A stretch of DNA of 64,000 bases, from NCBI GenBank assembly GCA_019635015.1, contig JAHCAG010000001.1, forward strand, positions 67,244 to 131,243, in the 5' to 3' direction. The stretch comes from Burkholderiales bacterium. Lineage in GTDB: Bacteria; Pseudomonadota; Gammaproteobacteria; Burkholderiales; SG8-41. This document shows positions 27,247-61,302 of this stretch, piece after piece (within the stretch, counting starts at the first letter, position 1; each line of letters opens with the position of its first letter). A model generated the notes under the pieces. That model was not told where the DNA came from. It ran no database searches and was given only the letters and a program-made list of their open reading frames with translations. The translations under genes and the position numbers were made by a program.

Positions 27247-27250
27247 AAAT

Positions 27251-27272
27251 CCCGGGGCCACGGGGCCCCGGG
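27251..27272. terminator. Hairpin between convergent ffh and nitroreductase genes (bidirectional terminator candidate)
   Basis: CCCGGGGCC (27251-59) pairs with GGCCCCGGG (27264-72) around a 4-nt loop. An A-run on the + side gives a U-tract for the minus-strand transcript only. Confidence 0.5.
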
Positions 27273-27299
27273 AACTGTCCGCTCTTGTTTCAACCGGCC

Positions 27300-32113: not shown

Positions 32114-32872
32114 TCAGCGCGCCGCGGTTTTCCACAGATCGCTGAGATACTCGTGATCAGCGGTGTTGATCCAGCTGTGGCGGTATTCCACCGGCGAATC
32201 GTTGTAGCTGTAGGCGATGCGGCGGATGTGCAGCGCCGGCTGGCTCGGGTGCATGCCGAGGATCCCCGCGATGTCGGCAGGCGGGTGCGCCGCCGACAGC
32301 TTTTCGCTGATGCGCACGACGTTGACCCCGTAACGCGCCTGGTAGAGGCCGTAGATCGTGCCTTCACGGCTGCGGAACGTCGATTCGTCCAGCCTTGCGA
32401 AGCGCTCGGTCGGCACGGTGATGTCGTCGAGCACCACCGGTCTGCCGCTCAGCTTCAGCAGGTTGCGCACCCTGGCGACACGGGTTCCGCGGGCGATGCC
32501 GAAGTCGCGCTCATCGCCGTCGCCAGCGCGCTCCTTCCGGAATCCGAGGAGTTCGGATTCCGGAAACTCGCTGCTGCCGTCCTTGCCGACGACATGGAAA
32601 AAATAGAACAGCGTGCGATCCTCGGTATGGGTGGCGACGAAGGTGCCGCGCCCCTGCTGGCGCACGAGGATGCGGCCGGCAACCAGTTCGTCGATGGCAC
32701 GGCGGATGGTGCCGATCGACACGCTGAATTGCCGGGCCAGCCGGGTTTCGCTGGGAATCGCCTCTCCCGGCTTCCATTCCCCGGCGGCGAGCGCGCGGGT
32801 GATACGCCATTGCACCTCGCGGTAGAGCGGATTCGGCACCAGGGTGTCGGGTGTGGGGGTCGAGGGGGCCAT
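32114..32872 (-). CDS. GntR-family transcriptional regulator (HutC subfamily, UTRA effector domain)
   Basis: wHTH region GEAIPSETRLARQFSVSIGTIRRAIDELVAGRILVRQQGRGTFV plus a C-terminal UTRA-like half. Diverges from the 33.0-45.8 kb gene set. Confidence 0.88.
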   Translation of the reverse strand: MAPSTPTPDTLVPNPLYREVQWRITRALAAGEWKPGEAIPSETRLARQFSVSIGTIRRAIDELVAGRILVRQQGRGTFVATHTEDRTLFYFFHVVGKDGSSEFPESELLGFRKERAGDGDERDFGIARGTRVARVRNLLKLSGRPVVLDDITVPTERFARLDESTFRSREGTIYGLYQARYGVNVVRISEKLSAAHPPADIAGILGMHPSQPALHIRRIAYSYNDSPVEYRHSWINTADHEYLSDLWKTAAR

Positions 32873-32910
32873 CGGCGGCGGAGTCTAGCACGGCCTTACA
32901 CGATTCATAT

Positions 32911-32928
32911 AGGTCATATAGTTGACCT
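32911..32928. promoter_or_regulatory. Candidate GntR/HutC operator
   Basis: Perfect inverted repeat AGGTCA-tatagt-TGACCT. It is embedded in the tandem TCATATAG-g-TCATATAG (32905-21) and overlaps the candidate -35. Confidence 0.45.
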
Positions 32929-32951
32929 CCCGGAAAGGCCGGGGTTAGGAT
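32922..32951 (+). promoter_or_regulatory. Sigma-70-type promoter candidate for the split UxaA-family genes
   Basis: TTGACC (32922-27), 18-nt spacer, TAGGAT (32946-51). Confidence 0.4.
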
Positions 32952-33017
32952 TTGCAGCCCTGCATAGCCGTTCCCAATCCGCTTGCACATCACCACAGCA
33001 TTCATCCAGGAGGCGCA

Positions 33018-33299
33018 ATGATTCACTTATTGGTTCACGACAAGAAAGACATGGTCGGCGTGGCCGTCATCGAAGGCATCAAGGCCGGACAGGAGATGAT
33101 CGGCTGGGTCATGGAAGATGATTCCACGATCAAGGTAAAGGCGATCAATGACATTCCCATCGGTCACAAGGCGGCGCTGTGCGAAATCAAGAAGGGCGAC
33201 ACCATCATCAAATACGGTTTTGACATCGGCAAGGCCGTGGCTGACATCAAGGTCGGCGAACACGCGCACGTGCACAACATCAAGACCAAGCGCTGGTAA
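33018..33299 (+). CDS. UxaA-family lyase, small SAF-domain subunit (SuyA-like architecture)
   Basis: 93 aa, MIHLLVHDKKDMVGVAV...IPIGHKAALCEIKKGDTIIKYG (SAF/altronate dehydratase N-domain pattern). ATG lies 4 nt after CAGGAGG. Confidence 0.8.
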   Translation: MIHLLVHDKKDMVGVAVIEGIKAGQEMIGWVMEDDSTIKVKAINDIPIGHKAALCEIKKGDTIIKYGFDIGKAVADIKVGEHAHVHNIKTKRW

Positions 33300-33348
33300 G
33301 CAGCGGCCGCAAGCCCCGCGATTCCGCCCCATTTTCGGAGACTGAAAC

Positions 33349-34518
33349 ATGATCAACAGCAAAACCACATTCATGGGCTACCGCCGCGAGAACGGCCGCG
33401 TCGGTGTCCGCAACCACGTCATCATCCTGCCCGTGGACGACCTGTCGAACGCCGCGGCCGAGGCGGTTGCCAACAACGTCAAGGGTGCGATCGCGATCCC
33501 GCATCCCTATGGCCGGCTGCAGTTCGGCGCCGACCTCGACCTGCATTTCCGCACCATCATCGGCGCCGGGGCCAACCCCAATGTCGCCGCCGTGGTGGTG
33601 ATCTGCATCGAGGAAGGCTGGGCCAAGAAAGTCGTCGACGGCATCGCCAAGACCGGCAAGCCGGTCACCGGTTTCGGCATCGAGCTGCACGGCGATCACG
33701 ACACCATCATGCGCGCCTCCAAGGTGGCCAAGGAGTACGTGCAGTGGGCTTCCGAGCTGCAGCGCACCGAGTGCCCGATCAGCGACCTCTGGGTGTCGAC
33801 CAAGTGCGGCGAGTCCGACACGACCTCCGGCTGCGGTTCCAACCCGACCGTCGGCAGTGCCTTCGACAAGCTGGAGCCGCTGGGCGTCACCATGTGTTTC
33901 GGCGAGACCACCGAAATCACCGGCGGCGAGAACATCGTCGCCGACCGCTGCGCAACCCCCGAAGTGCGCAAGGAATTCATGCGGATGTTCGACCGTTACC
34001 AGGCCATTGTCGAGAAAAACAAGACCAGCGATCTGTCCGATTCGCAGCCGACCAAGGGCAACATCGCCGGCGGCCTGACCACGATCGAGGAAAAGGCGCT
34101 GGGCAACATCCAGAAAATCGGCAAGAAGTGCAAGGTCATCGGCGTGCTCGACAAGGCCGAGGAGCCGACCAAACCCGGCCTGTGGTTCATGGACTCGTCC
34201 TCGGCCGCGGCGGAGATGGTCACGCTGTGCGCCGCGTCCGGTTATGTGGTGCACCTGTTCCCGACCGGGCAGGGCAATGTCATCGGCAATCCGATCATTC
34301 CGGTGGTCAAGCTGACGGCCAATCCGCGCACCGTGCGCACCATGAGCGAACACGTCGATTACGACTGCTCGGGCCTGCTGCAGCGTGAGAAAAACCTCGA
34401 CCAGACCGGCGACGAGCTGATCGAAATCATGCTGCGCACCTGTAATGGCCGGCTGACTGCCGCCGAGGCGCTGGGTCATCGCGAATTCGTGCTGACCCGC
34501 CTGTACGAAAGCGCCTGA
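33349..34518 (+). CDS. UxaA-family lyase, large catalytic subunit (SuyB-like architecture)
   Basis: 389 aa, [20 protein letters not shown]..., matching the C-terminal catalytic domain of altronate/galactarate dehydratases. Confidence 0.8.
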
Positions 34519-34534
34519 GTTCGCGCGCAGCAAA

Positions 34535-34577
34535 CCGCAGGGTCGGCAGAATCATCATGCCGGCCCTGCGGGTTTTG
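34535..34577 (+). terminator. Intrinsic terminator-like hairpin inside the island
   Basis: 13-bp stem (34535-47 with 34559-71, one G-U pair), 11-nt loop, then GTTTTG. Confidence 0.6.
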
Positions 34578-34583
34578 CGGTGT

Positions 34584-34599
34584 TCCCGGATATCCGGGA
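34584..34599. promoter_or_regulatory. Perfect 16-bp palindrome (candidate operator)
   Basis: TCCCGGATATCCGGGA, 38 nt upstream of the ThDP-enzyme start codon. Confidence 0.3.
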
Positions 34600-34637
34600 T
34601 TGCCACCGCTGACTGAAACGGACAGACCAGGATACCG

Positions 34638-36290
34638 ATGACCCCTCTCCGCGGTGCCGACATTCTCGCGCGTTCACTGGCGCAGGCCGGCCTGAAACGG
34701 ATTTTTTCACTGTCCGGCAACCACATCATGCCGGTCTACGACGCGGCGATCGAGGCGAAGCTGGCGATCACCCACGTGCGTTACGAAGGCGCGGCCGTGC
34801 ACATGGCCGATGCCTGGGCGCGGCTCACCGGAGAGCCCGGTATTGCGATGCTGACCGGCGGCCCCGGCCATGCCAACGGCATTGGCGCGCTGTACACCGC
34901 GCTCGCTTCGGAGTCGCCGCTGGTCCTGCTCTCGGGTCATGCGCCCCTCAACGAGCTCGGGCGCGGTTCATTCCAGGAAATACGCCAGGCCGACATGGCT
35001 GCCCCCGTGGTCAAGGCGTCATGGACGGCGGCGAGCGCGGAAACCCTGGGTGCCGACATTGCGCGCGCCTGCCGTGTTGCCCGCTCGGGGCGTCCTGGGC
35101 CGGTGCACCTGAGCCTGCCTTTCGACCTGCTGGAGGCGAAGGTGGCCGACGGCGAACAACGGCTGGCGGCGGCTGCCGATTTCGCGCCGATTGCCAGTCC
35201 GCTGCCGCAGCAGGCTGCACAGACCCTGCTGTCGCTGGTCAGGGAAGCGGACCGTCCGCTGATCCTGCTCGGGCCGTCGATGTCGCAGGTGCCGGTTGCC
35301 GGACTCGGCAGCAAGCTGGCCGAAGCAGCTGGCGTGCCGGTGCTGTGCATGGAAAGCCCGCGCGGCGTCAACGATCCCGCACTCGGCGCTTTTGCCGGTG
35401 TGCTGGCGCAGGCCGACCTCGTGGTGCTGATCGGCAAACAGCCGGACTTCACACTGCGCTTCTGCAAGGCCCCGGCGCTGGCTGCCGACTGCCGTTTTGC
35501 CGTCATTGACCCCGAGCCGGAGGTGCTGCAGCGTTCGGTGAAGAACATCGGCGCATCGCGCGTTGTGTTCTCGGCGCAGGCCGACACCGCGGCCGCAGTG
35601 CAGGCGCTTGCCGCCGCAGCGCAGCCGCATTCCGCCACGGCGTGGATGAAGCAGGTCGCGGATGCCGTGGCCTTCCGTCCCGAAGCCTGGCGCGCCATCG
35701 ACAGCGGCAAGGGCCCGGTTCATCCGGTCGAGCTCGGCCGCGCGGTGCAGGAAGTGCTCGCTGCATCACCCGAGGCGGTGTTTGTTGCCGACGGTGGCGA
35801 AATCGGTCAATGGGCCCAGGCCTGCATCAGCGCGCCGGTGCGCGTGATCAACGGCACGGGTGGTTCGATCGGCAGTGGCGTGCCCTTTGCATTTGCCGCG
35901 CGCATGGCGCGGCCGCAGGCCCCGGTGGTCGCGGTGATGGGTGACGGCGCCTTCGGCTTCCACCTGATGGAGTTCGACACGGCGGTGCGCGATGGTGTGC
36001 CGATGATCGTGGTCGTCGGCAACGATTCCTGCTGGAATGCCGAACACCAGATCCAGCTGCGCAGCTACGGCAAGGATCGGGCGCATGGCTGCGAACTGCG
36101 CGAAGGCACGCGCTACGACCTTGCGGTGGCCGCGCTGGGCGGGCATGGCGAACTGGTGACGCGTGTGGCTGATCTGCAGCCGGCTATGCAGCGCGCGCTG
36201 GCGAGCGGCAAGCCGGCCTGCATCAATGTGATGATCCAGCGCCTGCCGGCGCCGACGGTGACCGCCGGTGCCACGGCGGGGGCCCACTAG
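34638..36290 (+). CDS. Thiamine-diphosphate-dependent enzyme (acetolactate synthase / oxalyl-CoA decarboxylase / benzoylformate decarboxylase superfamily)
   Basis: N-terminal PYR domain (GADILARSLAQAGLKRIF...GPGHANG...GRGSFQE) and a C-terminal PP domain with GDGAFGF...NDSCWN. Confidence 0.85.
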   Translation: MTPLRGADILARSLAQAGLKRIFSLSGNHIMPVYDAAIEAKLAITHVRYEGAAVHMADAWARLTGEPGIAMLTGGPGHANGIGALYTALASESPLVLLSGHAPLNELGRGSFQEIRQADMAAPVVKASWTAASAETLGADIARACRVARSGRPGPVHLSLPFDLLEAKVADGEQRLAAAADFAPIASPLPQQAAQTLLSLVREADRPLILLGPSMSQVPVAGLGSKLAEAAGVPVLCMESPRGVNDPALGAFAGVLAQADLVVLIGKQPDFTLRFCKAPALAADCRFAVIDPEPEVLQRSVKNIGASRVVFSAQADTAAAVQALAAAAQPHSATAWMKQVADAVAFRPEAWRAIDSGKGPVHPVELGRAVQEVLAASPEAVFVADGGEIGQWAQACISAPVRVINGTGGSIGSGVPFAFAARMARPQAPVVAVMGDGAFGFHLMEFDTAVRDGVPMIVVVGNDSCWNAEHQIQLRSYGKDRAHGCELREGTRYDLAVAALGGHGELVTRVADLQPAMQRALASGKPACINVMIQRLPAPTVTAGATAGAH

Positions 36291-36300
36291 GAGCGTGCTG

Positions 36301-37014
36301 ATGGAAAACCTCAAGGTCAGGATCTGGCGCGGAGCCGAAGAAGGCGGCTTCCAGGAATTCGAGGTGCCGCGCCAGGAAAGCCAGACGGTGCTCGACGTCG
36401 TGACCTATGTGCAGCGCAAATGCGATCCGACACTGGCCTACCGTTTTGCCTGCCGTGTCGGTGTCTGCGGTTCCTGCGCAATGACGGTCAACGGCGAATC
36501 GCGCTGGACCTGCCGCACCCATGTGTCGAAGGTCGCGGCCGACAACCGGCTTGAAATCGCGCCGCTGCGCAACCTGCCGGTGGTCAAGGATCTTGTCACC
36601 GACATGCGTGAATTCTTCGACAAGTGGGCGAAGGCGCGGGGGCGCTTCACCGGCAGCAAGACACGCAAGGATGCATTCGAGCGCGTGTCGCCGGAGTCGA
36701 AGGAGCGCCGGCGCGTCGATGCCGGCATCGAGTGCATCGGCTGCGGCGTCTGCTACAGCGCCTGCGATGTCGTCAGCTGGAACAAGGATTACCTTGGCCC
36801 TGCTGCGCTCAACCGCGCGTGGACACTGATCAACGACGTGCGCGACACGGCGCGCGCCGAACGCCTGGCCGCGGTGGCGGGTGATGCCGGTTGCCATGCC
36901 TGCCACACCCACCTCAACTGCACCGAGCGCTGCCCGAAAGGGCTGTCGCCGACGGCCGGCATTGCCGGCCTGAAACGTGCCGTGCTGGCGGCAACGCTCT
37001 CGGGTGAAATTTAA
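36301..37014 (+). CDS. Succinate dehydrogenase / fumarate reductase-type iron-sulfur subunit (SdhB/FrdB-like)
   Basis: Cys clusters CRVGVCGSCAM (2Fe-2S), CIGCGVCYSAC (4Fe-4S) and CHACHTHLNCTERCP (3Fe-4S type). ATG lies 7 nt after TAGGAG. Confidence 0.88.
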   Translation: MENLKVRIWRGAEEGGFQEFEVPRQESQTVLDVVTYVQRKCDPTLAYRFACRVGVCGSCAMTVNGESRWTCRTHVSKVAADNRLEIAPLRNLPVVKDLVTDMREFFDKWAKARGRFTGSKTRKDAFERVSPESKERRRVDAGIECIGCGVCYSACDVVSWNKDYLGPAALNRAWTLINDVRDTARAERLAAVAGDAGCHACHTHLNCTERCPKGLSPTAGIAGLKRAVLAATLSGEI

Positions 37015-37069
37015 AAAATATGTTTAAAAACAAATATTTAAACTGTAATTTCGAAGCGAGGAGGCCAGC

Positions 37070-37417
37070 GTGAGCCGGCGCAGCGAGGTGTTGCTGTGGG
37101 GCGCGCAACGGATCAGTGCGATGGTGCTGGCGCTGTGCGTCATCGTGCACCTTGTGACCATGATCTATGCGGTCCGCAGCGGGCTTTCCGCCGCCGAGAT
37201 TCTCGGCCGCACCCAGGGCAGCGTCGCCTGGTTCGCGTTCTACACGCTGTTCGTCGCCGCCGTTGCGGTGCATGCGCCGATCGGCCTGCGCACGATCATC
37301 AGCGAAATGTGCAACTGGCGCGGCCGCGGGCTCGACCTGTTGACCGCCATTGTCGGCTTGAGCCTCGCGATGTGGGGCATGCGCGCGGTGTTCGCGGTGT
37401 TCGGAGGCGGCGCATGA
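37070..37417 (+). CDS. SDH/FRD-type hydrophobic membrane anchor (SdhD-like)
   Basis: 115 aa with three hydrophobic helices and a conserved-looking His (VAVHAPIGL). GTG lies 5 nt after GCGAGGAGG. Confidence 0.7.
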   Translation: MSRRSEVLLWGAQRISAMVLALCVIVHLVTMIYAVRSGLSAAEILGRTQGSVAWFAFYTLFVAAVAVHAPIGLRTIISEMCNWRGRGLDLLTAIVGLSLAMWGMRAVFAVFGGGA

Positions 37418-37761
37418 AGAACGATTTCCGCTCACGCAACCACCCGGCATACTGGGCATTCATCGTGCACCGCCTCTCCGGCGTGCTGCTTGCGCTGTTC
37501 CTGCCGTTGCATTTCTGGGCGCTGGGCCAGGCGCTGCAGGGTGCCGCCGCGCTCGACGGTTTCCTGCGCTGGACCGAACATCCGCTGGTGAAGTTTGCCG
37601 AGACCGGGCTGGTGCTGCTGCTGGCTGCGCACATGGCCGGCGGCCTACGCCTGCTGGCCCTGGAGTTCCTTGAGTGGCGGGAATGGCAGAAAACGCTGCT
37701 CGCCGCCGCTGCCGGGATTTCACTGGTGGCGGCGCTGGCCTTCCTGTTGAATCTGGTCTGA
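37414..37761 (+). CDS. SDH/FRD-type cytochrome b subunit (SdhC-like)
   Basis: 115 aa with an SdhC-like motif (AFIVHRLSGVLLALFLPLHFW). ATG overlaps the previous stop (ATGA). Confidence 0.7.
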   Translation: MKNDFRSRNHPAYWAFIVHRLSGVLLALFLPLHFWALGQALQGAAALDGFLRWTEHPLVKFAETGLVLLLAAHMAGGLRLLALEFLEWREWQKTLLAAAAGISLVAALAFLLNLV

Positions 37762-37783
37762 GCTGCCGTAACGAGGAGTGGAC

Positions 37784-39187
37784 ATGCGCAAGAAGCAGAA
37801 TCGCAGGAAACCCAACCTGCTGCTGATCCTGGTCGATGACCTGCGTTTCGACGAGTTCGGTGCCGGCGGGCACCCTTACATGAAGACTCCGCACATCGAC
37901 CGCATCGCGCAAGAGGGCGTGCTGTTCGAACGCGCCTTCCACACCACGCCGATCTGCTCGCCCAACCGCGCCTCGATATTGACCGGGCAGTACGCCAGTC
38001 GCCACGGCATCATCGACAACGTCGCGCGCGATCTGGCCAGCCACCGCCTGCCGAACTACCACCTCGAGCTGCAGCGACTCGGCTACGAGACTGCACACAT
38101 CGGCAAATGGCACATGGGCAACGACGGCAAGCCGCGCCCCGGCTACGATTTCTGGGTGGCTTATGACGGCCACGGCAACCTCTACGATCCGAAACTCAAC
38201 GAAAACGGCAAGTACGTGCAGCACAGGGGTTATGTCACCGACATCATGAACACGATGGCGGTCGACTGGATCCGCAGCCAGGGCCGCAAGAAGAACAAGA
38301 AGCCCTGGTCGCTGTGGTTCGCGCACAAGGCCGTGCACCCCGATGCGGAGCAGGCGGCTGACGGCTCGTTCAGGATGGACGGCTACCGTCCGGCGAAACG
38401 CCACGAGAACCTCTACAAGGGCTGCGTGTTCCCGAAGAAGCCGAACATGCAGAAACCGTCCGAGTTCCTCAAGCACAAGCCGGCCTGGACCGAGGCCGTT
38501 GCGTTGCGCAAGACGCCGGCGTCGAAGGTGATGCATGACGCGATCCACTCCGGCAAGCAGGAAGAGATCCGCCTGCGCGCGGCGATGATGGCCGCGGTCG
38601 ACGAGGGCGTCGGCATGATCTTCAAGGCGCTGGAAGAGGCCGGTGAACTCGACAACACGGTGATCCTGTTCCTCGGCGACAACGGTTATTTTTTCGGCGA
38701 GCACGGCATCGGGCCGGAACGGCGTTTCGCCTACGAGGAGGGCATCCGCTCGCCGCTGACCATCCGCTGGCCGGGAAAAATCAAGGCCGGATCAAGGGTG
38801 AAGCAGCTTGCGATACTGCAGGACCTTGCGCCGACGCTGATCGAGATTGCCGGCGGCAGGCCCGGCGGGCACATCCAGGGGCGCTCCCTGCTGCCACTGC
38901 TGCGCGGCAAGGCCGCCGGCTGGCGCAAGTCGCTGCTGGTCGAATACTGGGCCGAGAACGCCTACCCCTGGCTGGTCAACATGACCTACAAGGCGGTGCG
39001 CACCGACCGCTACAAGTACATCCACTGGGTCAACCGCGCGCGCAGCGGCGAACTGGACGAACTCTACGACCTGGACAAGGATCCCTGGGAAATGGTCAAC
39101 ATCGCGCATCGTCCGGCGTCGCGGGCGTTACGCGAGAAAATGCATCGCGAACTGCGCCGGCTCGCTGCGGATGCCCTCGGCCTTTAG
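37784..39187 (+). CDS. Cys-type sulfatase (formylglycine family), no signal peptide
   Basis: N-terminal LLLILVDDLRFDE and the FGly signature CSPNRASILTG. ATG 37784 lies 5 nt after GAGGAG. The N-terminus MRKKQNRRKPN has no hydrophobic h-region. Confidence 0.88.
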   Translation: MRKKQNRRKPNLLLILVDDLRFDEFGAGGHPYMKTPHIDRIAQEGVLFERAFHTTPICSPNRASILTGQYASRHGIIDNVARDLASHRLPNYHLELQRLGYETAHIGKWHMGNDGKPRPGYDFWVAYDGHGNLYDPKLNENGKYVQHRGYVTDIMNTMAVDWIRSQGRKKNKKPWSLWFAHKAVHPDAEQAADGSFRMDGYRPAKRHENLYKGCVFPKKPNMQKPSEFLKHKPAWTEAVALRKTPASKVMHDAIHSGKQEEIRLRAAMMAAVDEGVGMIFKALEEAGELDNTVILFLGDNGYFFGEHGIGPERRFAYEEGIRSPLTIRWPGKIKAGSRVKQLAILQDLAPTLIEIAGGRPGGHIQGRSLLPLLRGKAAGWRKSLLVEYWAENAYPWLVNMTYKAVRTDRYKYIHWVNRARSGELDELYDLDKDPWEMVNIAHRPASRALREKMHRELRRLAADALGL

Positions 39188-39293
39188 GGCGGCGGCTTGC
39201 TGCACCCCCGTGGCTGGGGTATCGTGAAACGGGTAATTTCCCGCATCAACAGACCAGTACAACCGAAAAAAACCGCACAGTGAGGAGAACGTG

Positions 39294-40256
39294 ATGATGA
39301 TGACCCGAGTAATCGCCGCGGCATGCCTGCTCGCCGCTTCCACCGCCTTTGCCGCCGATGCCTATCCGCAGCGCCCCGTGCGCATCATCGTGCCGTTTGC
39401 GCCGGGTGGCGCGACCGACATAGTTGCGCGCCTGGTGGCACAGAAACTCACCGAAACCTGGGGGCAGACCATGGTGGTCGACAACCGCGCCGGCGCCGGC
39501 GGCAACATCGGCGGCGAGCTGGCGGCCCGGGCCAACCCCGACGGCTACACGCTGTTCATGACCTCGGGCTCCATCGTCACCGCGAACCAGCACATGTACG
39601 CGAAGATGCCCTTCAGTCCGGAAAAAGACCTTGTGGCGGTCACCAACGTTGCCAGCGGCCCGCAGGTCATCGCCGTCAATGCAGGCAATCCGGCAAAGAC
39701 GCTGAAGGAGTTCATCGCGATGGCGAAAGCGAAGCCGAAATCGATGACTTTCGGCTCGGCCGGCGTCGGCACCCAGACCCACCTGGCCGCGGAGAACTTC
39801 GTCTACACCGCGGGCATCGACGTCACGCACGTGCCGTACAAGGGCGAAGGCCCGGCAGTCACGGACCTGATCGGAGGACAGATCCAGTTTGTGACCCCCA
39901 ACCTTTCCGCGGCGATCGCCTTCGTCAATTCCGGAAAACTGCGCGCGCTGGCGGTGACCAGCAAGGATCGCGCGCCGCAGCTGCCGAATGTCCCGGCGGT
40001 GGCCGAAACGCTGCCCGGTTTCGAAAACCTCGGCTGGTTCGGTTTCATGGTGCCGGCAGGCACGCCGAAGTCGGTAATTGACAAGGTGCATGTCGACACC
40101 GTCAAGGCATTGCGCAGCCCCGATCTGGTCAAGCGTTTCAACGACATCGGCATGGTGCCGGTGGGCAACAGCCCGCAGGATTTTGCGCGCGACATCAAGG
40201 CCGAGTCGGAGCGCTGGGCGAAGATCATCAAGGAACGCAATCTGCAGGTGAAATGA
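39294..40256 (+). CDS. Tripartite tricarboxylate transporter substrate-binding protein (Bug/TctC family) 1
   Basis: Signal peptide plus PVRIIVPFAPGGATDIVARL and other family motifs. Start ATG 39294, or 39291/39297. Confidence 0.9.
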   Translation: MMMTRVIAAACLLAASTAFAADAYPQRPVRIIVPFAPGGATDIVARLVAQKLTETWGQTMVVDNRAGAGGNIGGELAARANPDGYTLFMTSGSIVTANQHMYAKMPFSPEKDLVAVTNVASGPQVIAVNAGNPAKTLKEFIAMAKAKPKSMTFGSAGVGTQTHLAAENFVYTAGIDVTHVPYKGEGPAVTDLIGGQIQFVTPNLSAAIAFVNSGKLRALAVTSKDRAPQLPNVPAVAETLPGFENLGWFGFMVPAGTPKSVIDKVHVDTVKALRSPDLVKRFNDIGMVPVGNSPQDFARDIKAESERWAKIIKERNLQVK

Positions 40257-40264
40257 CGGCAGGA

Positions 40265-40320
40265 CCGGCTTCCGCGGACGCTGCGTCCTGTCGTGTCCGC
40301 GGGAGCCGGGTTTTTGATTT
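40265..40320 (+). terminator. Strong intrinsic terminator after Bug gene 1
   Basis: 15-bp stem (40265-79 with 40295-309, one G-U pair), 15-nt loop, then GTTTTTGATTT. Confidence 0.75.
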
Positions 40321-40335
40321 CCCGAAAGGTAATCC

Positions 40336-41211
40336 GTGAAAGTTGATCCGAAACAGGTCGAGGAGGCGTGCAAGGAGCTCTACATCCGTGCGCTCAAGAT
40401 GCTTCCCCCTGACATCAAGCAGGGTTTCCAGCGGCTGGACAGCGCCGAAACCAATGCCACCGGCAAGGCCATCCTCGGCACGATGATCCGCAATATCAAG
40501 GTGGCCGAGGACAACACCAACCTGTTGTGCCAGGACACCGGCATTCCCATCTACAACGTTGTCATCGGGTCCGGCATCGAGGTCGATGGCCATGCGCTGA
40601 AACAGGCGATCGTGAGCGGCTGCACCCGCGCCACCAAGGAGCATCCGCTGCGCTCATCCGTGGTGCATCCGACGACGCGCAAGAACGAGCACACCTCGGG
40701 CGGCCGCCACGTGCCGGTGATCAACATCGATTTCACCGCTGATGCCGACACGCTGTCGATCGAGATGATTCCGAAGGGCTCGGGCTCCGAGAACAATTCC
40801 TGGCTGAAAATGGCGATTCCCGCCGACGGCGTGGACGCGATCAAGACCTTTGTCATCGACTGCGTGCTTGAGGCCGGCGGCAAGAGCTGCCCGCCGGTGA
40901 TTGTCGGTGTCGGTGTCGGCGGCACCGCTGATCTCTGCGTGCACCTGTCGAAGGTCGCGGCAACGCGGCCGCTGGGCAGTGTCTGCGCGGATCCCGAGGG
41001 GGCGAAGCTGGAAGCCGAGCTCTCCGCGGTGGTCAACAAGCTGGGTGTCGGCGCCCAGGGCCTCGGCGGCGATTCCACCGCCTTTGCGGTGCATGTCGAA
41101 ACGGCCGCCACCCACATCACGATGAATCCCGTGGCGGTCAACATGCAGTGCCATTCGGCGCGGCGCGCGCGGGCGACCTTCACGCCGCAAGGCCTGGCGT
41201 ACGGCTATTAG
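40336..41211 (+). CDS. Fe-S hydro-lyase alpha subunit (class I fumarase N-domain / L-tartrate dehydratase TtdA-like)
   Basis: Motifs LLCQDTGIPIYNV and GGKSCPPVIVGVGVGGTADLC are typical of the family. GTG 40336 lies 5 nt after AAAGG. Confidence 0.85.
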   Translation: MKVDPKQVEEACKELYIRALKMLPPDIKQGFQRLDSAETNATGKAILGTMIRNIKVAEDNTNLLCQDTGIPIYNVVIGSGIEVDGHALKQAIVSGCTRATKEHPLRSSVVHPTTRKNEHTSGGRHVPVINIDFTADADTLSIEMIPKGSGSENNSWLKMAIPADGVDAIKTFVIDCVLEAGGKSCPPVIVGVGVGGTADLCVHLSKVAATRPLGSVCADPEGAKLEAELSAVVNKLGVGAQGLGGDSTAFAVHVETAATHITMNPVAVNMQCHSARRARATFTPQGLAYGY

Positions 41212-41220
41212 GATACGGAC

Positions 41221-41832
41221 ATGGCGCATTACGAATTCAACATGCCGGTCAGTGAAGAGCAGGTGCGCAAGCTGCGCATCAACGACACCGTCACACTGCA
41301 CCAGACCCTGTACGGCATCCGCGATGCCACCCAGATCCACATGTTCGACCATGGCCGGAAGACGCGTTTTGACATGCGGGGGCATGCCGTCGTCCACACC
41401 GCCCCCAATGTCAAATGGGTCGGCGAAACCAAGGCGCATCCCTCGGGCTACGCACCGATCTGCATCGGCACCACGACCAGCGCGCGCATGGAGCGTTTCA
41501 CCAGGCCGCTGATGGAACAGTACGGCGTGCGCATCATCATCGGCAAGGGCGGTTTGTTTGCCGCGTCGGCGAAAGCCTTTGCCGATCTCGGCGGCGTCTA
41601 CCTCGCGATCATCGGCGGCACTGCCGCGCTGGAAACCACCTGGATTGAACAGATCGAGGAAGTCGACCTCGACGACCTCAACCCGGAGTCGTTGTGGAAG
41701 TTCCGCATCAAGGGCTTCGGCCCGCTGCTGGTGGCGATGGATTCCCACGGCGGCAGCCTTTATACCGCGGTCAACGCCGCGGCCAAGGACCAGCGTGCCG
41801 GAGTGCTGGCGGCGCTGGGCGTCAAAAGCTGA
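41221..41832 (+). CDS. Fe-S hydro-lyase beta subunit (fumarase C-domain / TtdB-like)
   Basis: 203 aa, LTLHQTLYGIRDATQIHMF...IIGKGG.. pattern. Starts 9 nt after the alpha subunit. Confidence 0.82.
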   Translation: MAHYEFNMPVSEEQVRKLRINDTVTLHQTLYGIRDATQIHMFDHGRKTRFDMRGHAVVHTAPNVKWVGETKAHPSGYAPICIGTTTSARMERFTRPLMEQYGVRIIIGKGGLFAASAKAFADLGGVYLAIIGGTAALETTWIEQIEEVDLDDLNPESLWKFRIKGFGPLLVAMDSHGGSLYTAVNAAAKDQRAGVLAALGVKS

Positions 41833-41845
41833 AAATCAAAAACCG

Positions 41846-41927
41846 GCCACAGAGAGCACAGAGAACAGCAAAACTATCGATTGCAATGGTTTCTGTTTTT
41901 CTCTGTGTCCTTTGTGATCTCTGTGGC
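41846..41927. repeat. REP-like imperfect palindromic element built from CACAGAGA words
   Basis: Left arm GCCACAGAGAGCACAGAGAACAG (41846-68). Right arm CTGTTTTTCTCTGTGTCCTTTGTGATCTCTGTGGC (41893-927). The outer 10 bp are perfectly complementary. Confidence 0.7.
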
Positions 41928-41945
41928 TAAAAGGTTTTATTCCCT

Positions 41946-43661
41946 ATGCAAACCATCAAAACCGACATCCTGATCCTCGGCTCCGGCGGCGCCGGACTTT
42001 TTGCCGCGCTGCATGCGCACCAGCACAATCCGCAGCTGTCGATCACCGTCGCGGTGAAGGGCCTGCTGGGCAAGACCGGCTGCACGCGGATGGTGCAGGG
42101 CGGCTACAATGTCGCGCTCGCCACCGGTGACTCGGTCGAGCGCCATTTCATGGATACCATCGAAGGCGGCAAATGGCTGCCCGACCAGGACCTGGCGTGG
42201 ACGCTGGTCGAAACCGCGGTGGAACGCATCCACGAACTCGAAAACGAGCTCGGTTGCTTCTTCGACCGCAACCCCGACGGCACGATCCACCAGAAGGCCT
42301 TTGCCGGGCAGACCTTCGACCGCACAGTGCACAAGGGCGACCTGACCGGCATCGAGATCATCAACCGCCTTGCCGAGCAGGTGTGGGCGCGCGGCATTGA
42401 CCGGCTGGAAGAGCACCGGGCGGTGGAACTCATCCGCAACAAGGCCGGCGATGCGATTTCAGGCGTGCTGATGATTGACATGCGCACGGGTGAATTTGTA
42501 TTTGTGCAGGCGCAGGCCGTGCTGCTGGCCACCGGCGGCGGGCCGACGATGTACAAGTTCCACACTCCTTCGGGCGACAAGAGCTGCGACGGCATGGCCA
42601 TGGCGCTGCGTGGCGGGCTGATGCTGCGCGACATGGAGATGGTGCAGTTTCACCCGACCGGGCTGATCGCCGGTTCCGACACGCGCATCACCGGCACCAT
42701 CATCGAGGAAGGTTTGCGCGGCGCCGGCGGCTACCTGCTGAACGGCGCCGGCGAACGTTTCATGCACAACTACGATCCACGCAACGAACGCGCCACGCGC
42801 GACATCGTCAGCCGCGGCATGTACGAGGAAATGCGCGCCGGCCGCGTCAACCAGCACGGCGGGCTTTACATCACCATGAAACATCTCGATCCGGTCATGG
42901 TGCGCCGCGAATTCAAGGGCATGGTCGAACGCTGCGCCGACTGCGGTTTTGACCTGGTCAGCGGCCTGGTCGATGTGGTGCCCACCGCCCATTACATGAT
43001 GGGGGGCGTGGTGTTCAAGACGGATTGCAGCACCGATCTGCCCGGCTTGTTCGTCGCCGGCGAAGATTCCGGCGGCGTGCACGGCGCCAACCGCCTTGGC
43101 GGCAACGGCGTGGCCAATTCCACGGTGTTCGGCGGCATCGCCGGCGACGTGATGCCGGGCTGGGTCAGGGCGAATGGCGGGTTCCGCGCGCCGGACCAGG
43201 ATGCGATTGATGCCGCGGTGGCGCGCTGCCGTGCGCCGCTTTCGCGCAAGGGCGGCGACATCAACGCGATCCGCGAGGAACTCTATAACGTTATGTGGGA
43301 CGACGTCGGCATCATCCGCGATGCCGCGTCGCTGGTTCGCGCCGAAGGACAGCTTGATGAGCTTGATGCCCGGTTGGATGCGACCGGCGTCGATGGTTCC
43401 ACGCTGGCGTTCAACCTGACCTGGCACGACTGGATGAATTTAAAAAATCTTGTGCTGGTGTCGAAATCGATCCGTTTTGCCGCGATGGCGCGGGAAGACT
43501 CGCGCGGCTCGCATTTCCGTGCCGATTTTCCCGACGTGCGTGATCTGGAGAATTCCCGTTACACCTGCGTCAGCTGGCAGGGCGGGCGTTTTGCCAGCGA
43601 AACCCGGCCGGTGCACTTCACCCGCGTCAAACCCGGGCAGTCGCTGCTGACCCCGGCCTGA
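41946..43661 (+). CDS. FrdA/SdhA-family FAD flavoprotein (Cys in place of the FAD-binding His)
   Basis: Motifs DILILGSGGAGL, FHPTG, EEGLRGAGGYLLN, TAHYMMGGV, HGANRLGGN and REDSRGSHFR. It has GCTRMVQGG where SdhA/FrdA have SHT..AQGG. Confidence 0.88.
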   Translation: MQTIKTDILILGSGGAGLFAALHAHQHNPQLSITVAVKGLLGKTGCTRMVQGGYNVALATGDSVERHFMDTIEGGKWLPDQDLAWTLVETAVERIHELENELGCFFDRNPDGTIHQKAFAGQTFDRTVHKGDLTGIEIINRLAEQVWARGIDRLEEHRAVELIRNKAGDAISGVLMIDMRTGEFVFVQAQAVLLATGGGPTMYKFHTPSGDKSCDGMAMALRGGLMLRDMEMVQFHPTGLIAGSDTRITGTIIEEGLRGAGGYLLNGAGERFMHNYDPRNERATRDIVSRGMYEEMRAGRVNQHGGLYITMKHLDPVMVRREFKGMVERCADCGFDLVSGLVDVVPTAHYMMGGVVFKTDCSTDLPGLFVAGEDSGGVHGANRLGGNGVANSTVFGGIAGDVMPGWVRANGGFRAPDQDAIDAAVARCRAPLSRKGGDINAIREELYNVMWDDVGIIRDAASLVRAEGQLDELDARLDATGVDGSTLAFNLTWHDWMNLKNLVLVSKSIRFAAMAREDSRGSHFRADFPDVRDLENSRYTCVSWQGGRFASETRPVHFTRVKPGQSLLTPA

Positions 43662-43764
43662 GGCCGGGGCCGGTGATGTTTGATTTTTCCGCGCCGGCAG
43701 GCGAGACTGCCGGTCCCCGAACGTCCTGTTCCGGATTCCAGCATACAACCAGTGAGGAGTGGCC

Positions 43765-44742
43765 ATGGCCCAGTTCAACATTCTGTTACGCGGCTTCTGT
43801 GCCGTAATCGCAATCGCCGCCGGTGCGGCGCCTGCGGCTGCGCAGGAGTTTCCGTCCAGGGCGGTCCGCATGGTGCTGCCGTTCCCGGCCGGCGGCGGCA
43901 GCGACCTGGTGGCGCGCATCATCGCGCAGAAGTATTCGCAGCAACTCGGCCAGCAGGTGATCGTTGACAACCGGGCAGGCGCCAGCGGCAACATTGCAGC
44001 CGACATCGTGGCCAAGGCGCCGGGCGACGGCTACACGGTGTTTTTCGCCAACTCCTCCATTGCGATCAGCCCCGCGATCTACAAGAAGCTGAGTTTCGAT
44101 CCGGTCAGGGATTTTGCCGCGATATCGATGGCTTCCTCGTATCCCTTCGCGCTGGTCGCGCATCCTGCGCTGCCGGTGAAAACCGTCAAGGACCTGGTGG
44201 CATTGGCCAAGTCCAAGCCGAATTCCCTCGACTATTCGTCAGCCGGCACCGGCACGATGTCGCACATGGCGATGGAAATGCTGCGGGTCAAAACCGGCAC
44301 CCGCATCACCCACCTGCCGTACAAGGGCGCGGCGCCGGCTTCGGTGGCCTTGCTGACCGGCGAGTCCCAGGTGGCATTCGTGGTGATGCCGGTGGCGGCG
44401 CCGCACGTCCGCAACAACCGCCTGCGCGGGCTGGCTGTCGCCGACAAGGTGCGTTCGGCGGTCGCGCCGGAGCTGCCGACGATGATCGAGGCGGGCGTCA
44501 AGGATCACATCGCACTGCAGTGGAATGGCTTGCTGGCTCCGGCGAAGACCCCGCAGGCGGTGCAGGACAAGCTGTATCGCGAGTGGGTTGTGGCCGTCAA
44601 ATCGCCCGAGGTCGTGCAGCGCATCCGGGCCGAAGGCGCCGAACCCAGCGGCAACACGCCGGCCGAGTTTTCCGCATTTTTCCGCTCGGAGCTTGCGAAG
44701 TGGGCGGATGTCGCAAAGCAGTCCGGCACCACAGTGGACTGA
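43765..44742 (+). CDS. Bug/TctC-family substrate-binding protein 2
   Basis: Signal peptide plus AVRMVLPFPAGGGSDLVARI. ATG 43765 lies 5 nt after GAGGAG. Confidence 0.9.
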   Translation: MAQFNILLRGFCAVIAIAAGAAPAAAQEFPSRAVRMVLPFPAGGGSDLVARIIAQKYSQQLGQQVIVDNRAGASGNIAADIVAKAPGDGYTVFFANSSIAISPAIYKKLSFDPVRDFAAISMASSYPFALVAHPALPVKTVKDLVALAKSKPNSLDYSSAGTGTMSHMAMEMLRVKTGTRITHLPYKGAAPASVALLTGESQVAFVVMPVAAPHVRNNRLRGLAVADKVRSAVAPELPTMIEAGVKDHIALQWNGLLAPAKTPQAVQDKLYREWVVAVKSPEVVQRIRAEGAEPSGNTPAEFSAFFRSELAKWADVAKQSGTTVD

Positions 44743-44752
44743 GCCTGCCGCG

Positions 44753-45766
44753 ATGCCGACGCTGACCACGGGGGAGCTCTCGGAGCTTGTTGCGCGGGCG
44801 CTGAAGCGCGCCGGCGCGTCGAAGGTGATGGCGCAGACCACCGCAGATGCGCTGGTGGCGGCCGAGGCGGAGGGCCTTTCCGGCCATGGCCTGTCGCGCG
44901 TGGCACTCTATGCGCAGCACCTGCGCGAGGGTCGCGCTGATGGAAAAGCGAAGCCGAAAGTCGTGCGCAAGCAGGGGGCGACCTGCCTGATCGACGCCGG
45001 CGGCGGCCTCGCTTTTCCGGCGGCTGCGCTGGCGGTGACCGAAGTGGTCAAACGCGCGCGGCGTTACGGCATTGCCTTTGCCGGCGTCACCAACAGCCAC
45101 CATTTTGGCGCCGCAGCCTACCATCTTGCGCCGATCGCCGATGCGGGCATGACCGGCATCGCACTGACCAATTCGCCGGCGGCGATCAATGCCTGGGGCG
45201 GCAAGCGGGCGTACTTCGGCACCAATCCCGTTGCCGCGATTTTTCCGCGCAAGGATGCCGCACCGATCGTTGTCGACCTGTCGCTGACCGAAGTGACCCG
45301 CGGCAAGATCATGCTGATGGCGAAGGAAAACAAGCCGATCCCGCCCGGCTGGGCGGTCGACCGCGACGGCAACCCGACGACCAGCGCGCAGGCGGCGCTG
45401 ACCGGCAGCCTGACCGCGATCGGCGGCGTCAAGGGCGCTGCGCTGGCGCTGATGGTCGAAGCGCTGTGCGTTGCGCTGACCGGCGCGGCGCTGAGCGTGG
45501 AAAACGATTCGTACTTCGAACCCGGCAACAAGCCGCGCATCGGTCATGCGCTGATCGCGATCGATCCGCACGCGCTGGCGGGAGCGGAGACCTACTATTC
45601 GCGCATCGAAGACATGGTTACGGGCATGCTCGCCGACGATGGTGTGCGCCTGCCCGGTGCGCGGCGGCAGGCTGCGCTTGCACAGGCACAGGCCGGCGGC
45701 ATTGCCGTTGCCGATGCGCTGCATGCCGAACTGCGCCGGCTCGCCGGACGCAGTCGTGCGGCCTGA
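44753..45766 (+). CDS. LDH2/MDH2-family (Ldh_2) NAD(P)-dependent 2-hydroxyacid/2-oxoacid oxidoreductase
   Basis: Motifs EGLSGHGLSRVALY, HHFGAAAYH and GGVKGAALALMVE are typical of malate/L-lactate/sulfolactate dehydrogenase family 2. Confidence 0.82.
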   Translation: MPTLTTGELSELVARALKRAGASKVMAQTTADALVAAEAEGLSGHGLSRVALYAQHLREGRADGKAKPKVVRKQGATCLIDAGGGLAFPAAALAVTEVVKRARRYGIAFAGVTNSHHFGAAAYHLAPIADAGMTGIALTNSPAAINAWGGKRAYFGTNPVAAIFPRKDAAPIVVDLSLTEVTRGKIMLMAKENKPIPPGWAVDRDGNPTTSAQAALTGSLTAIGGVKGAALALMVEALCVALTGAALSVENDSYFEPGNKPRIGHALIAIDPHALAGAETYYSRIEDMVTGMLADDGVRLPGARRQAALAQAQAGGIAVADALHAELRRLAGRSRAA

Positions 45767-47975: not shown

Positions 47976-48123
47976 GTTGTCTTCTCCGATCCGCTTGAAG
48001 TCACCGGCATGATACGACGCCGGCCGGCGCCATAATCCGGAAAACCGCTGCCGTGAGCGGGCCGATGCGTGTATGTTGACCGTGTGCCGCGGAGACGACC
48101 CGCAGACTGAAGGAGGAGAACAC

Positions 48124-58934: not shown

Positions 58935-59025
58935 GCGCGTGATTTTTTGCGGAATTTTTGTTGAATAATTGCGCATGCCTGCAGCATGCCGCCCTGATCC
59001 ACAGACCTGAAACGAAAGGACTTTC

Positions 59026-60018: not shown

Positions 60019-60053
60019 GCCGGAACAGTCTCCGGCCGGCGGCAAGGCGCGCG

Positions 60054-60554: not shown

Positions 60555-60569
60555 TCCCAGCCGGGAATT

Positions 60570-61187: not shown

Positions 61188-61302
61188 GATCAGTCCTGAC
61201 GGGAAAACCGGAAATTAACATGAACGCAGTATTCTGATGCTAGGATGCGACCCTGAATTCCAGCCTCAATCTCCCAACCCCAATCCTGTCCGCATCCACA
61301 TC

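Follow-up and report, generated by a model that had tools for sequence, protein, structure and literature searches.

Degradation of sulfolactate by Paracoccus pantotrophus and Chromohalobacter salexigens involves the split sulfo-lyase SuyAB, the dehydrogenases SlcC and ComC and the transporter SlcHFG (Rein 2005 and Denger & Cook 2010, as cited in PMC12421959). The locus described here is a gene island at positions 32114-45766 of a 64,000 nt stretch of DNA (the window) from a Burkholderiales bacterium (GenBank assembly GCA_019635015.1, contig JAHCAG010000001.1). It shares with that system, as represented there, the split lyase (67-81% identity to the copies in sulfolactate and dihydroxypropanesulfonate (DHPS) clusters), an Ldh_2-family dehydrogenase that is a ComC-like candidate, an upstream GntR/UTRA regulator and binding proteins of the tripartite tricarboxylate transporter (TTT) type. 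Unlike the system as represented there, the island has its lyase in an operon with a paralogue of complex II, an Fe-S hydratase and a thiamine diphosphate (ThDP) enzyme, and no SlcC-type D-2-hydroxyacid dehydrogenase, TctA/TctB or exporter was seen among the window open reading frames (ORFs) tested. The island is built from known families; what is new is that a complex-II paralogue and an Fe-S hydratase are joined to a sulfolactate-lyase pathway. It very probably serves sulfonate catabolism with release of sulfite. That the substrate is specifically 3-sulfopropionate (3-SP) is a tentative assignment with a little less than an even chance of being right. Slightly more tentative still is the proposal that the complex-II paralogue, with its Cys and Glu replacements, and the Fe-S hydratase form the missing route of 3-SP mineralization, with electrons passed into the quinone pool, possibly through a cysteinyl-linked flavin.

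Complex II (SdhABCD; E. coli 1NEK, M. smegmatis Sdh1/Sdh2) shares with the island the four-subunit make-up, the cluster domains of SdhB, the heme His of SdhC, the substrate His and Arg residues and the proton-shuttle Arg. Unlike complex II, the island has a Cys for the FAD-linking His, a Glu for the catalytic Thr, an extra Thr-Arg loop, at most 37% identity to true SdhA/FrdA and the gene order B-D-C...A, with transporter and hydratase genes in between and in the setting of a sulfonate cluster. TcuAB of Salmonella likewise has a flavoprotein of the SdhA family that desaturates a succinate-like, non-succinate acid with a membrane Fe-S partner; it differs in that TcuB is a single fused membrane Fe-S protein and that neither a hydratase nor sulfur chemistry is involved. 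The hydratase shares its fold family, three Cys ligands, CQDTG motif and the beta-subunit motifs TTSxR and GKGG with M. jannaschii fumarate hydratase (7XKY) and E. coli TtdAB. Unlike these, its beta subunit stays below the family cut-offs, the TtdA and TtdB equivalog models are not reached, and it is encoded beside a complex-II paralogue. A thesis (J. Mayer, as cited in PMC11489063) reports that Roseovarius nubinhibens ISM, when it degrades homotaurine, converts 3-SP via sulfoacrylate to sulfolactate. These are the intermediates proposed here, and the accounts of that route that could be read assign no genes or enzymes to it. Sulfoacrylate is a proven metabolite of bacterial coenzyme M biosynthesis, where it is likewise made and used, as a fumarate analogue, by fumarate-family enzymes (PMC9457059); that pathway differs in that sulfoacrylate arises from phosphosulfolactate by an enzyme of the aspartase/fumarase superfamily (class II type) and not by dehydrogenation.

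Gene content was checked by ORF listing and by Pfam and NCBIfam profile searches. All domain calls of an earlier reading of this DNA, referred to below as the original prediction, were borne out. It had counted 14 co-oriented genes diverging from a GntR regulator; the divergent HutC-type regulator is present, and the co-oriented structural genes number 13. The NCBIfam cut-offs passed by island proteins are those of dhsB, ttdA_fumA_fumB and succ_dehyd_cytB (broad or subfamily models) and of PRK06246 (equivalog), and no others.

The split UxaA-type pair at the head of the island is well supported as an orthologue of the (2R)-sulfolactate sulfo-lyase SuyAB. Its SAF-like small subunit (33018-33299, plus strand; 93 aa) has no Pfam match and a weak match to the N-terminal part of GarD, and its large subunit (33349-34518, plus strand) has the UxaA_C domains GD_AH_second and GD_AH_C (PF04295 and PF20629). 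This reproduces exactly the pattern of the validated proteins, of which SuyA has no Pfam model and SuyB has PF20629 and PF04295 (PMC12421959, Table S2). A GntR+UTRA regulator is also located upstream of suyAB in Paracoccus wurundjeri (PMC12421959, Table S1). In a translated search of plasmids with the window large subunit, one group of matches was 62-81% identical and all others were below 40%. The 81% match lies directly after hpsN, hpsO, an MFS transporter gene and a further dehydrogenase gene in the DHPS cluster of Cupriavidus pinatubonensis. The 67.5% match lies on plasmid pTAV3 of Paracoccus versutus in the order GntR-small subunit-large subunit-exporter, and this copy adjoins hpsN-like genes, an ABC transporter and a sulfite oxidase. 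This order is the suyRABZ layout of P. pantotrophus. The small subunit is 59% identical to its counterparts in C. pinatubonensis and P. versutus, and hundreds of close homologues of the large subunit are labeled SuyB by JGI. These comparisons used the C. pinatubonensis and P. versutus copies rather than the validated P. pantotrophus NKNCYSA sequence.

Conservation was assessed by a scan with the flavoprotein against one genome per species, which gave more than 600 matches. Eighty loci with 69-97% identity were kept, mostly from Burkholderiales, with some from Rhodospirillales, other Alphaproteobacteria, Pseudomonas and Acidiferrobacterales. The 14 island proteins were mapped onto these loci, and co-occurrence was counted in the 39 loci with at least 7 kb on either side of the flavoprotein gene. 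The island is a real, coherent unit with conserved synteny, and with the same gene set in dozens of species its arrangement goes far beyond what chance would give. The flavoprotein, Fe-S subunit and membrane anchors are encoded together and syntenic in 38 of the 39 loci, and both hydratase genes are near the flavoprotein gene in 37. The invariant core order is SdhB-SdhD-SdhC-(binding protein or ABC genes)-hydratase alpha-hydratase beta-flavoprotein, and the core was found in Burkholderiales, Rhizobiales, Rhodobacterales, Pseudomonas, Rhodococcus and haloarchaea. Not all genes are equal partners, as the original prediction had implied. Ldh_2 (29/39), the SuyB-like large subunit (24/39), the GntR regulator (19/39) and the ThDP enzyme (17/39) are frequent but movable, and the sulfatase is rare (9/39). 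The order and orientation of the movable partners vary (e.g. loci L031, L043, L045, L050 and L055), which is the mark of genes tied by function and not by common descent. Several alphaproteobacterial loci have the hydratase genes after that of the flavoprotein, and identity to the hydratase pair of the window is only 30-36%; the occurrence of another fumarase-family pair in the same slot suggests that the coupling of dehydrogenase and hydratase is what selection keeps.

The complex-II paralogue consists of an SdhB-like Fe-S subunit (36301-37014, plus strand; PF13085 and Fer4 domains, TIGR00384 at 201 bits against a cut-off of 88), an SdhD-like membrane anchor (37070-37417, plus strand; PF01127, with a TIGR02968 match), an SdhC-like cytochrome b subunit (37414-37761, plus strand; PF01127, TIGR02970 at 58.6 against 52.3) and an SdhA/FrdA-like flavoprotein (41946-43661, plus strand; PF00890 and PF02910). 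The reading frames of sdhD and sdhC share 4 nt, the sdhC start lying over the sdhD stop. The anchors are of the Sdh_cyt type (PF01127) and not of the E. coli FrdC/FrdD type, and the counterpart of the heme ligand His84 of E. coli SdhC is kept; the names frdC and frdD first given to these genes are thus to be replaced by sdhC and sdhD. The closest solved relatives of the flavoprotein are M. smegmatis Sdh1, E. coli FrdA and E. coli SdhA. In the plasmid search the family was at least 46% identical internally, Rhodococcus and haloarchaeal members included, and true SdhA was at most 37% identical. The flavoprotein scores below every equivalog cut-off (TfrA 499 against 718, TIGR01812 431 against 567, sdhA_forward 338 against 727), and an exact-sequence look-up found no record of it.

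In the alignment with FrdA, the dicarboxylate-binding and proton-donating residues His236, Arg285, His349 and Arg383 are kept and invariant. The reported lack of the FAD-binding His is real: Cys46 (codon at about 42081-42083) aligns with the FAD-linking His44 of E. coli FrdA (His45 of SdhA). Glu254 aligns with the active-site Thr of the capping domain (Thr244 of FrdA, Thr254 of SdhA). Cys46, Glu254 and an additional preceding loop, Thr-Arg-x-Thr-Gly-Thr, are invariant in 66 of 66 family sequences. The kept His/Arg set together with the invariant Cys46, Glu254 and Thr-Arg loop suggests a substrate that is succinate-like but not succinate, and the complex is accordingly read here as a putative quinone-linked dehydrogenase for a succinate-shaped, non-succinate compound. 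To our knowledge a cysteinyl-flavin link, should Cys46 bear one, would be the first in the SdhA/FrdA family. Two other roles were considered and rejected as the main reading: an L-cysteate:quinone oxidoreductase would leave the hydratase without a role, and a sulfite-reactive AprA-like enzyme does not agree with the intact dicarboxylate site.

The Fe-S hydro-lyase comprises an alpha subunit of the class I fumarase family (Fumerase, PF05681; 40336-41211, plus strand) and a beta subunit (Fumerase_C, PF05683; 41221-41832, plus strand). The alpha subunit passes the PRK06246 'fumarate hydratase' cut-off (298 against 276) and is below that of TtdA (175 against 365); its closest structure is M. jannaschii fumarate hydratase 7xky_A. 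The beta subunit is below all NCBIfam cut-offs (122 against 269, TtdB 131 against 264, and 135 against 145). The alpha subunit has the three Cys ligands and the motifs CQDTG, GKSCPP and QCHSARR, and the beta subunit keeps GTTTSARM and GKGG, the [4Fe-4S] ligand and catalytic motifs of this family. No residue change that would tell the substrate was found in the beta-subunit alignments. The enzyme is proposed to be a sulfoacrylate hydratase. In loci L017-L019 (at about 8710-9375) a gene for a chalcone-isomerase-like protein with a signal peptide (PF16036) is located between the alpha and beta genes, an arrangement of one lineage; the gene also occurs in L032 and L076.

The remaining ORFs of the 80 loci were clustered and then profiled by family. 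SuyB, TauE or a molybdenum sulfite oxidase is encoded within 10 kb of the core in 33 of the 39 long loci. Among the neighboring families are TauE/SafE sulfite exporters (two groups), ABC transporters of the NitT/TauT type (with an NMT1-like binding protein, a permease and an ATPase) and DctA-type carriers. A molybdenum sulfite-oxidase gene lies between suyB and sdhB in L017, L018 and L020. In at least seven loci a gene for a D-isomer 2-hydroxyacid dehydrogenase is directly beside the Ldh_2 gene; the pairing matches the SlcC/ComC sulfolactate racemase of Chromohalobacter, and the family assignments were confirmed. On plasmid pMRAD01 of Methylobacterium radiotolerans the order is binding protein-SdhBDC-hydratase-flavoprotein-ThDP-binding protein-TauE-SuyAB-DctA-dehydrogenase-Ldh-GntR. 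On P. versutus pTAV3 a large sulfolactate/DHPS island encloses the module, whose genes are annotated there as fumarate reductase flavoprotein, L(+)-tartrate dehydratase alpha and beta, and TauE. The order SdhBDC-flavoprotein-hydratase, accompanied by TauE, LysR and a complete TctCBA set, is found on a Sulfitobacter plasmid and on the Marivita chromosome; in Marivita the hydratase is followed by a sulfite oxidase gene and the ThDP gene, both translationally coupled to it. With the SuyAB orthology and the TauE, molybdenum sulfite oxidase and TauT-type ABC genes in or near the operons of relatives, the first of the two pathways originally suggested, organosulfur-acid catabolism, is supported. On the plasmid of Sulfitobacter sp. 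THAF37 (L084), a gene annotated as 3-sulfinopropanoyl-CoA desulfinase is found at 26403-27575, about 10 kb from the module, which hints at a link between 3-mercaptopropionate/3-sulfinopropionate and 3-sulfopropionate metabolism.

Neither a sulfite exporter nor a sulfite oxidase was found among the window ORFs tested, as had been stated at the outset. For the exporter this is a local, lineage-specific absence, as close relatives carry TauE: in L005, L007, L009 and L016 the gene follows immediately after sdhC, and in close relatives it lies between sdhC and the sulfatase gene.

A succinate-type dehydrogenase and a fumarase-type hydratase kept together beside SuyAB suggest a sulfo-analogue of the succinate to malate conversion. 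The proposed route would accordingly mirror the citric-acid-cycle sequence succinate to fumarate to malate (and on to oxaloacetate); its steps other than the SuyAB assignment are ones that we infer. The Bug/TctC proteins would bind the sulfonate in the periplasm, with the membrane parts TctA and TctB encoded elsewhere. The flavoprotein, SdhB and heme-b SdhC/SdhD would then oxidize 3-SP to (E)-3-sulfoacrylate, with transfer of electrons to quinone, and the two-subunit [4Fe-4S] fumarase-type hydratase would add water to give 3-sulfolactate. SuyAB, assigned by strong orthology, would cleave (2R)-3-sulfolactate to pyruvate and sulfite. The ComC-like Ldh_2 would interconvert sulfolactate and sulfopyruvate, elsewhere forming a two-enzyme racemase with the adjacent D-2-hydroxyacid dehydrogenase, and the ThDP enzyme may take sulfopyruvate along a second branch. 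Sulfite would be exported or oxidized by products of genes outside the window; relatives have TauE or the molybdenum sulfite oxidase in the operon.

3-SP is a product of DHPS fermentation and of homotaurine breakdown. Its bacterial degradation was described as not reported in 2024 (PMC11489063), and a 2026 review calls the mechanism of 3-SP degradation in Bilophila wadsworthia still unclear (PMC12890257). In the literature searched, no paper assigns genes to the route from 3-SP via sulfoacrylate to sulfolactate, and no characterized pathway with this enzyme set turned up, in agreement with the original prediction. General literature on tartrate, fumarase, succinate dehydrogenase and TTT clusters gave nothing relevant, and the search for SuyAB together with fumarate enzymes gave only the P. 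wurundjeri paper. When that organism grows on sulfofucose, with sulfolactate as an intermediate of the breakdown, nine proteins encoded in a cluster annotated as 'fumarate and tartrate metabolism' rise in abundance; a TauE homologue is part of this cluster (PMC12421959). The induced cluster is probably the same module; the 90% clusters of the P. versutus module proteins list no MDP accession (P. wurundjeri). Roseovarius nubinhibens is absent from the best 120 homologues of the marine flavoprotein, and the only Roseovarius found is Roseovarius sp. PS-C2, in a hydratase cluster.

Several points weigh against the 3-SP route. Without the FAD-linking His, which is absent throughout the family, oxidation of the succinate type would normally be crippled, and a reductase fits as well as a dehydrogenase. 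The Glu at the position that hydrogen-bonds the substrate carboxylate is no obvious sulfonate ligand, and the hydratase alpha subunit passes the cut-off of a plain 'fumarate hydratase' model. The growth substrate of P. wurundjeri should not yield 3-SP; induction of the module would then have to be gratuitous, with sulfolactate or sulfite as the inducer. No SuyAB is encoded within 10 kb of the Marivita-type operon, and sulfite may arise differently there. Among the window ORFs tested there is no TctA/TctB, no TauE and no sulfite oxidase, and the scheme does not account for the ThDP enzyme and the sulfatase.

Five other explanations were weighed. The one that survives best, though unlikely, keeps the chemistry and changes the substrate to another succinate-like sulfur compound, sulfosuccinate or 3-sulfinopropionate. 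Sulfosuccinate would be oxidized to sulfofumarate, and hydration would give either oxaloacetate and sulfite directly or sulfomalate, to be converted to sulfolactate via Ldh_2 and a decarboxylation. For both compounds the two carboxylate-binding His/Arg pairs of the flavoprotein are intact, and operons of the Marivita type need no SuyAB under such a scheme. Sulfosuccinate is a trianion and the transporters are of the tricarboxylate (TTT) type; for 3-sulfinopropionate there is the desulfinase gene 10 kb from the Sulfitobacter module. Sulfosuccinate is, however, mainly a man-made surfactant residue, yet the module occurs in more than 600 species genomes, marine ones included. Its use would demand an extra decarboxylation step that has no dedicated gene, and no precedent was found in the literature searched. 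For either compound, the 81% identity of SuyAB to a sulfolactate-pathway enzyme points instead to sulfolactate as an intermediate.

The invariable replacement of the FAD-linking His and of Thr244, both kept in every solved relative aligned (and, as far as is known, in complex II), also bears on a second explanation, a true succinate dehydrogenase, fumarase and malate dehydrogenase set acting as a sulfite-tolerant or alternative bypass of the citric acid cycle during sulfonate degradation. This is a little less likely again. It would agree with the fumarate hydratase score of the alpha subunit, with the conserved dicarboxylate-binding residues and with the occurrence of malate dehydrogenases among Ldh_2 proteins, and the authors of PMC12421959 take the induced cluster as linked to the Krebs cycle. 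Besides these two replacements, the clear gap in identity to true SdhA (at most 37%) and the binding-protein or ABC genes within the operon, which imply uptake of an external substrate, count against it.

The anchors of the complex are heme-b SdhC/SdhD of the succinate:ubiquinone type, and most of the hosts are aerobic Proteobacteria that use ubiquinone, the reduced form of which would be a poor donor for such a reduction. Both facts make it improbable that the module runs in reverse, with sulfolactate dehydrated to sulfoacrylate and this reduced to 3-SP by a quinol-dependent reductase as an electron sink, TauE exporting the 3-SP. Flavoproteins without the covalent His are usually reductases, which would suit this direction, as would the induction of the P. 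wurundjeri cluster while sulfolactate is made. TauE has been proposed as a 3-SP exporter in Enterococcus gilvus (PMC11489063). SuyAB, on the other hand, already consumes sulfolactate, and degradation by P. wurundjeri was complete with release of sulfite.

Marginally less probable than reversal is that the complex-II paralogue is a membrane sulfolactate:quinone dehydrogenase and the fumarase-like protein a tautomerase of enol- and keto-sulfopyruvate, which together with Ldh_2 would racemize sulfolactate for SuyAB. The window does have Ldh_2 and no SlcC-type D-2-hydroxyacid dehydrogenase, induction on a sulfolactate-yielding substrate would fit, and succinate dehydrogenase oxidizes malate to enol-oxaloacetate, while FumA tautomerizes oxaloacetate. 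Many loci, however, have the SlcC-like/ComC-like pair in addition to the module, which would be redundant; alcohol oxidation as the main reaction is known for no member of the family, and a tautomerase is hard to square with a full Fe-S hydratase kept in 37 of the 39 loci. The second pathway originally suggested, in which a fumarate reductase would take part in a sulfur-free conversion of tartrate or another hydroxy-dicarboxylate to oxaloacetate, malate, fumarate and succinate, is very improbable: its enzyme families are in part those of E. coli TtdAB, Mdh and Frd, but the TtdA and TtdB scores (175 against 365 and 131 against 264) are far under the equivalog cut-offs, the UxaA pair is a SuyAB orthologue, the anchors are of the succinate:quinone reductase and not the quinol:fumarate reductase type, and TauE, sulfite oxidase and TauT-type transporters dominate the neighborhood.

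The further enzymes of the island are a ThDP enzyme, an Ldh_2-family dehydrogenase and a sulfatase. The ThDP enzyme (34638-36290, plus strand; Pfam TPP_enzyme_N/M/C) belongs to the HACL/Oxc/BAL clade and is below every NCBIfam equivalog cut-off. Xsc (TIGR03457) was rejected as its identity on the family score of 158 against 676; closer matches are PRK05858 and 2-hydroxyacyl-CoA lyase, also under their cut-offs, and the nearest solved structure is the 2-hydroxyacyl-CoA lyase 7pt1. Our best guess, which is speculative, is that the enzyme may process sulfopyruvate by decarboxylation, possibly with elimination of sulfite by analogy with Xsc chemistry; such a role would explain the operons without SuyAB. 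Equally speculatively, it might make 3-SP from 2-oxo-4-sulfobutanoate. The Ldh_2 protein (44753-45766, plus strand; PF02615, 320 bits) has its best NCBIfam match to NF040650, L-sulfolactate dehydrogenase (202 against a cut-off of 500), and is 42-44% identical to the Ldh proteins beside SlcC-like genes in Paracoccus and Methylobacterium. It is a candidate ComC-like enzyme for the interconversion of (R)-sulfolactate and sulfopyruvate.

The sulfatase (37784-39187, plus strand; PF00884 at 166 bits and PF16347) is a cytoplasmic Cys-type S1 enzyme with no signal peptide. The formylglycine maturation motif C-x-P-x-R is present (CSPNRASILTG), and the nearest solved structures are carbohydrate 6-O-sulfatases, the closest being GlcNAc-6-sulfatase 5g2v. 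No sulfatase maturase was found among the window ORFs tested, not every ORF having been scanned. The gene occurs in 9 of the 80 loci, all closest relatives, always between sdhC and a binding-protein gene, and is a lineage-specific accessory insertion. A gene of the ComA family ((2R)-phospho-3-sulfolactate synthase, PF02679) was seen inside the operon after sdhC/TauE in L006 (5107-6018), L012 (2409-3536) and L016 (2551-3372). The L006 copy overlaps at its end with the beginning of the sulfatase gene, which raises the question whether the 'sulfatase' acts on phosphosulfolactate in that locus.

Two TTT (Bug/TctC) binding proteins are encoded in the island. The first (39291-40256, plus strand; PF03401, 265 bits) has a signal peptide and is predicted to be periplasmic; the second is located at 43759-44742 (plus strand; PF03401, 233 bits). 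The gene of the first is embedded in the core operon, and many loci have an orthologue at the matching position. Comparison with TTT proteins encoded beside suyAB or slcC/comC gave 30-45% identity for both and did not discriminate. These two TctC proteins are the only TTT components of the island and, as had been noted, no candidate for TctA or TctB was found among the window ORFs tested; the relatives in Marivita and Sulfitobacter have TctCBA.

The regulator gene (32114-32872, minus strand) encodes a HutC-type protein with a GntR helix-turn-helix and a UTRA effector domain (PF00392 and PF07702). The spacer between it and suyA contains two promoter-like sites, the hexamers of which, at 32895-32951, are overlapped by a candidate operator, TATAGGTCATATAGTTGACCT, at 32908-32928 (no strand assigned), with inverted arms AGGTCA and TGACCT. 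The operator was recognized by reading of the sequence and a promoter scan. A search for perfect palindromes failed in most loci; a mismatch-tolerant search was needed, and the motif was found with at most 3 mismatches in the GntR-suyA spacers of L001, L002, L004, L007, L009, L026 and L036, the regulators of which are as little as 45% identical. The HutC-type regulator probably represses the operon at this conserved, promoter-overlapping candidate operator.

The two hairpins from which three transcription units had been proposed are real. The hairpin after suyB (34535-34571, plus strand) has a folding z-score of -4.6 against shuffled sequence and is a possible partial terminator or RNA-stabilizing element. 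The terminator-like hairpin after the first binding-protein gene (40265-40309, or 40265-40320 as an element with its U tract, plus strand; 17-bp stem, z -3.6) is followed by GUUUUUGAUUU and was partly caught by a simple terminator scan. Over the whole island that scan gave 13 sites against 12 expected from shuffled sequence, which is no enrichment, so that the idea of three units rests only on the two folded hairpins. The spacer between the hydratase and flavoprotein genes holds a long imperfect palindrome (inverted repeat I1; 41839-41937, plus strand; z -6.0) that is shared only with L002 among the loci. It had been labeled a 'REP' element; it is single-copy in the window, and the label was rejected.

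The island is flanked by rpsP-rimM-trmD-rplS plus one extra gene on one side and by recQ on the other. Between rplS and the GntR gene, in a stretch of 69% GC, lies an ORF (30422-32104, plus strand) whose 560-aa product is rich in Ala, Leu and Arg, carries a signal peptide and matches no Pfam or NCBIfam model. It looks like an insertion, as in L004 and L009 the GntR gene is separated from trmD-rplS by no more than a few hundred bases. Just beyond recQ, a gene at 48073-49020 (plus strand) encodes an Fe/2-oxoglutarate dioxygenase of the TauD/TfdA family; orthologues are located near the module in 8 loci, among them L001 (81% identity) and the alphaproteobacterial L037, and the protein may be a second sulfonate- or sulfate-ester-related enzyme. 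An FMN-dependent alpha-hydroxy-acid dehydrogenase (49934-51208, minus strand; PF01070, 429 bits), kept downstream of the island in four close loci (e.g. L007, 68%), could act on lactate, as an enzyme of the LldD type, or on sulfolactate. The stretches 57939-62280 and 62771-63829 look like a separate cluster of orphan binding proteins: three further Bug/TctC-like genes give tblastn similarity at about 58229-62198, with polysaccharide deacetylase, DUF1499 and mandelate-racemase/enolase-family genes close by.

C3 sulfonates carry very large flows of carbon and sulfur among phototrophs, fermenters and mineralizers. The cluster supplies concrete candidate genes for the degradation of 3-SP, and hosts of the module, namely Methylobacterium radiotolerans, Paracoccus versutus, Cupriavidus necator N-1 and Paraburkholderia, are culturable. 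If the proposed route is correct, the complex-II paralogue would be, as far as is known, the first complex-II-type enzyme to act on a sulfonate, with an unusual flavin site, and a segment of a 'sulfo-citric-acid-cycle' would be present in hundreds of soil, freshwater and marine species. Homologues of the module proteins are at present named L-aspartate oxidase, fumarate reductase flavoprotein, L(+)-tartrate or tartrate dehydratase, D-galactarate dehydratase and FAD-binding protein in the databases; thousands of such names would then be annotation errors that distort metabolic reconstructions from soil and ocean metagenomes.

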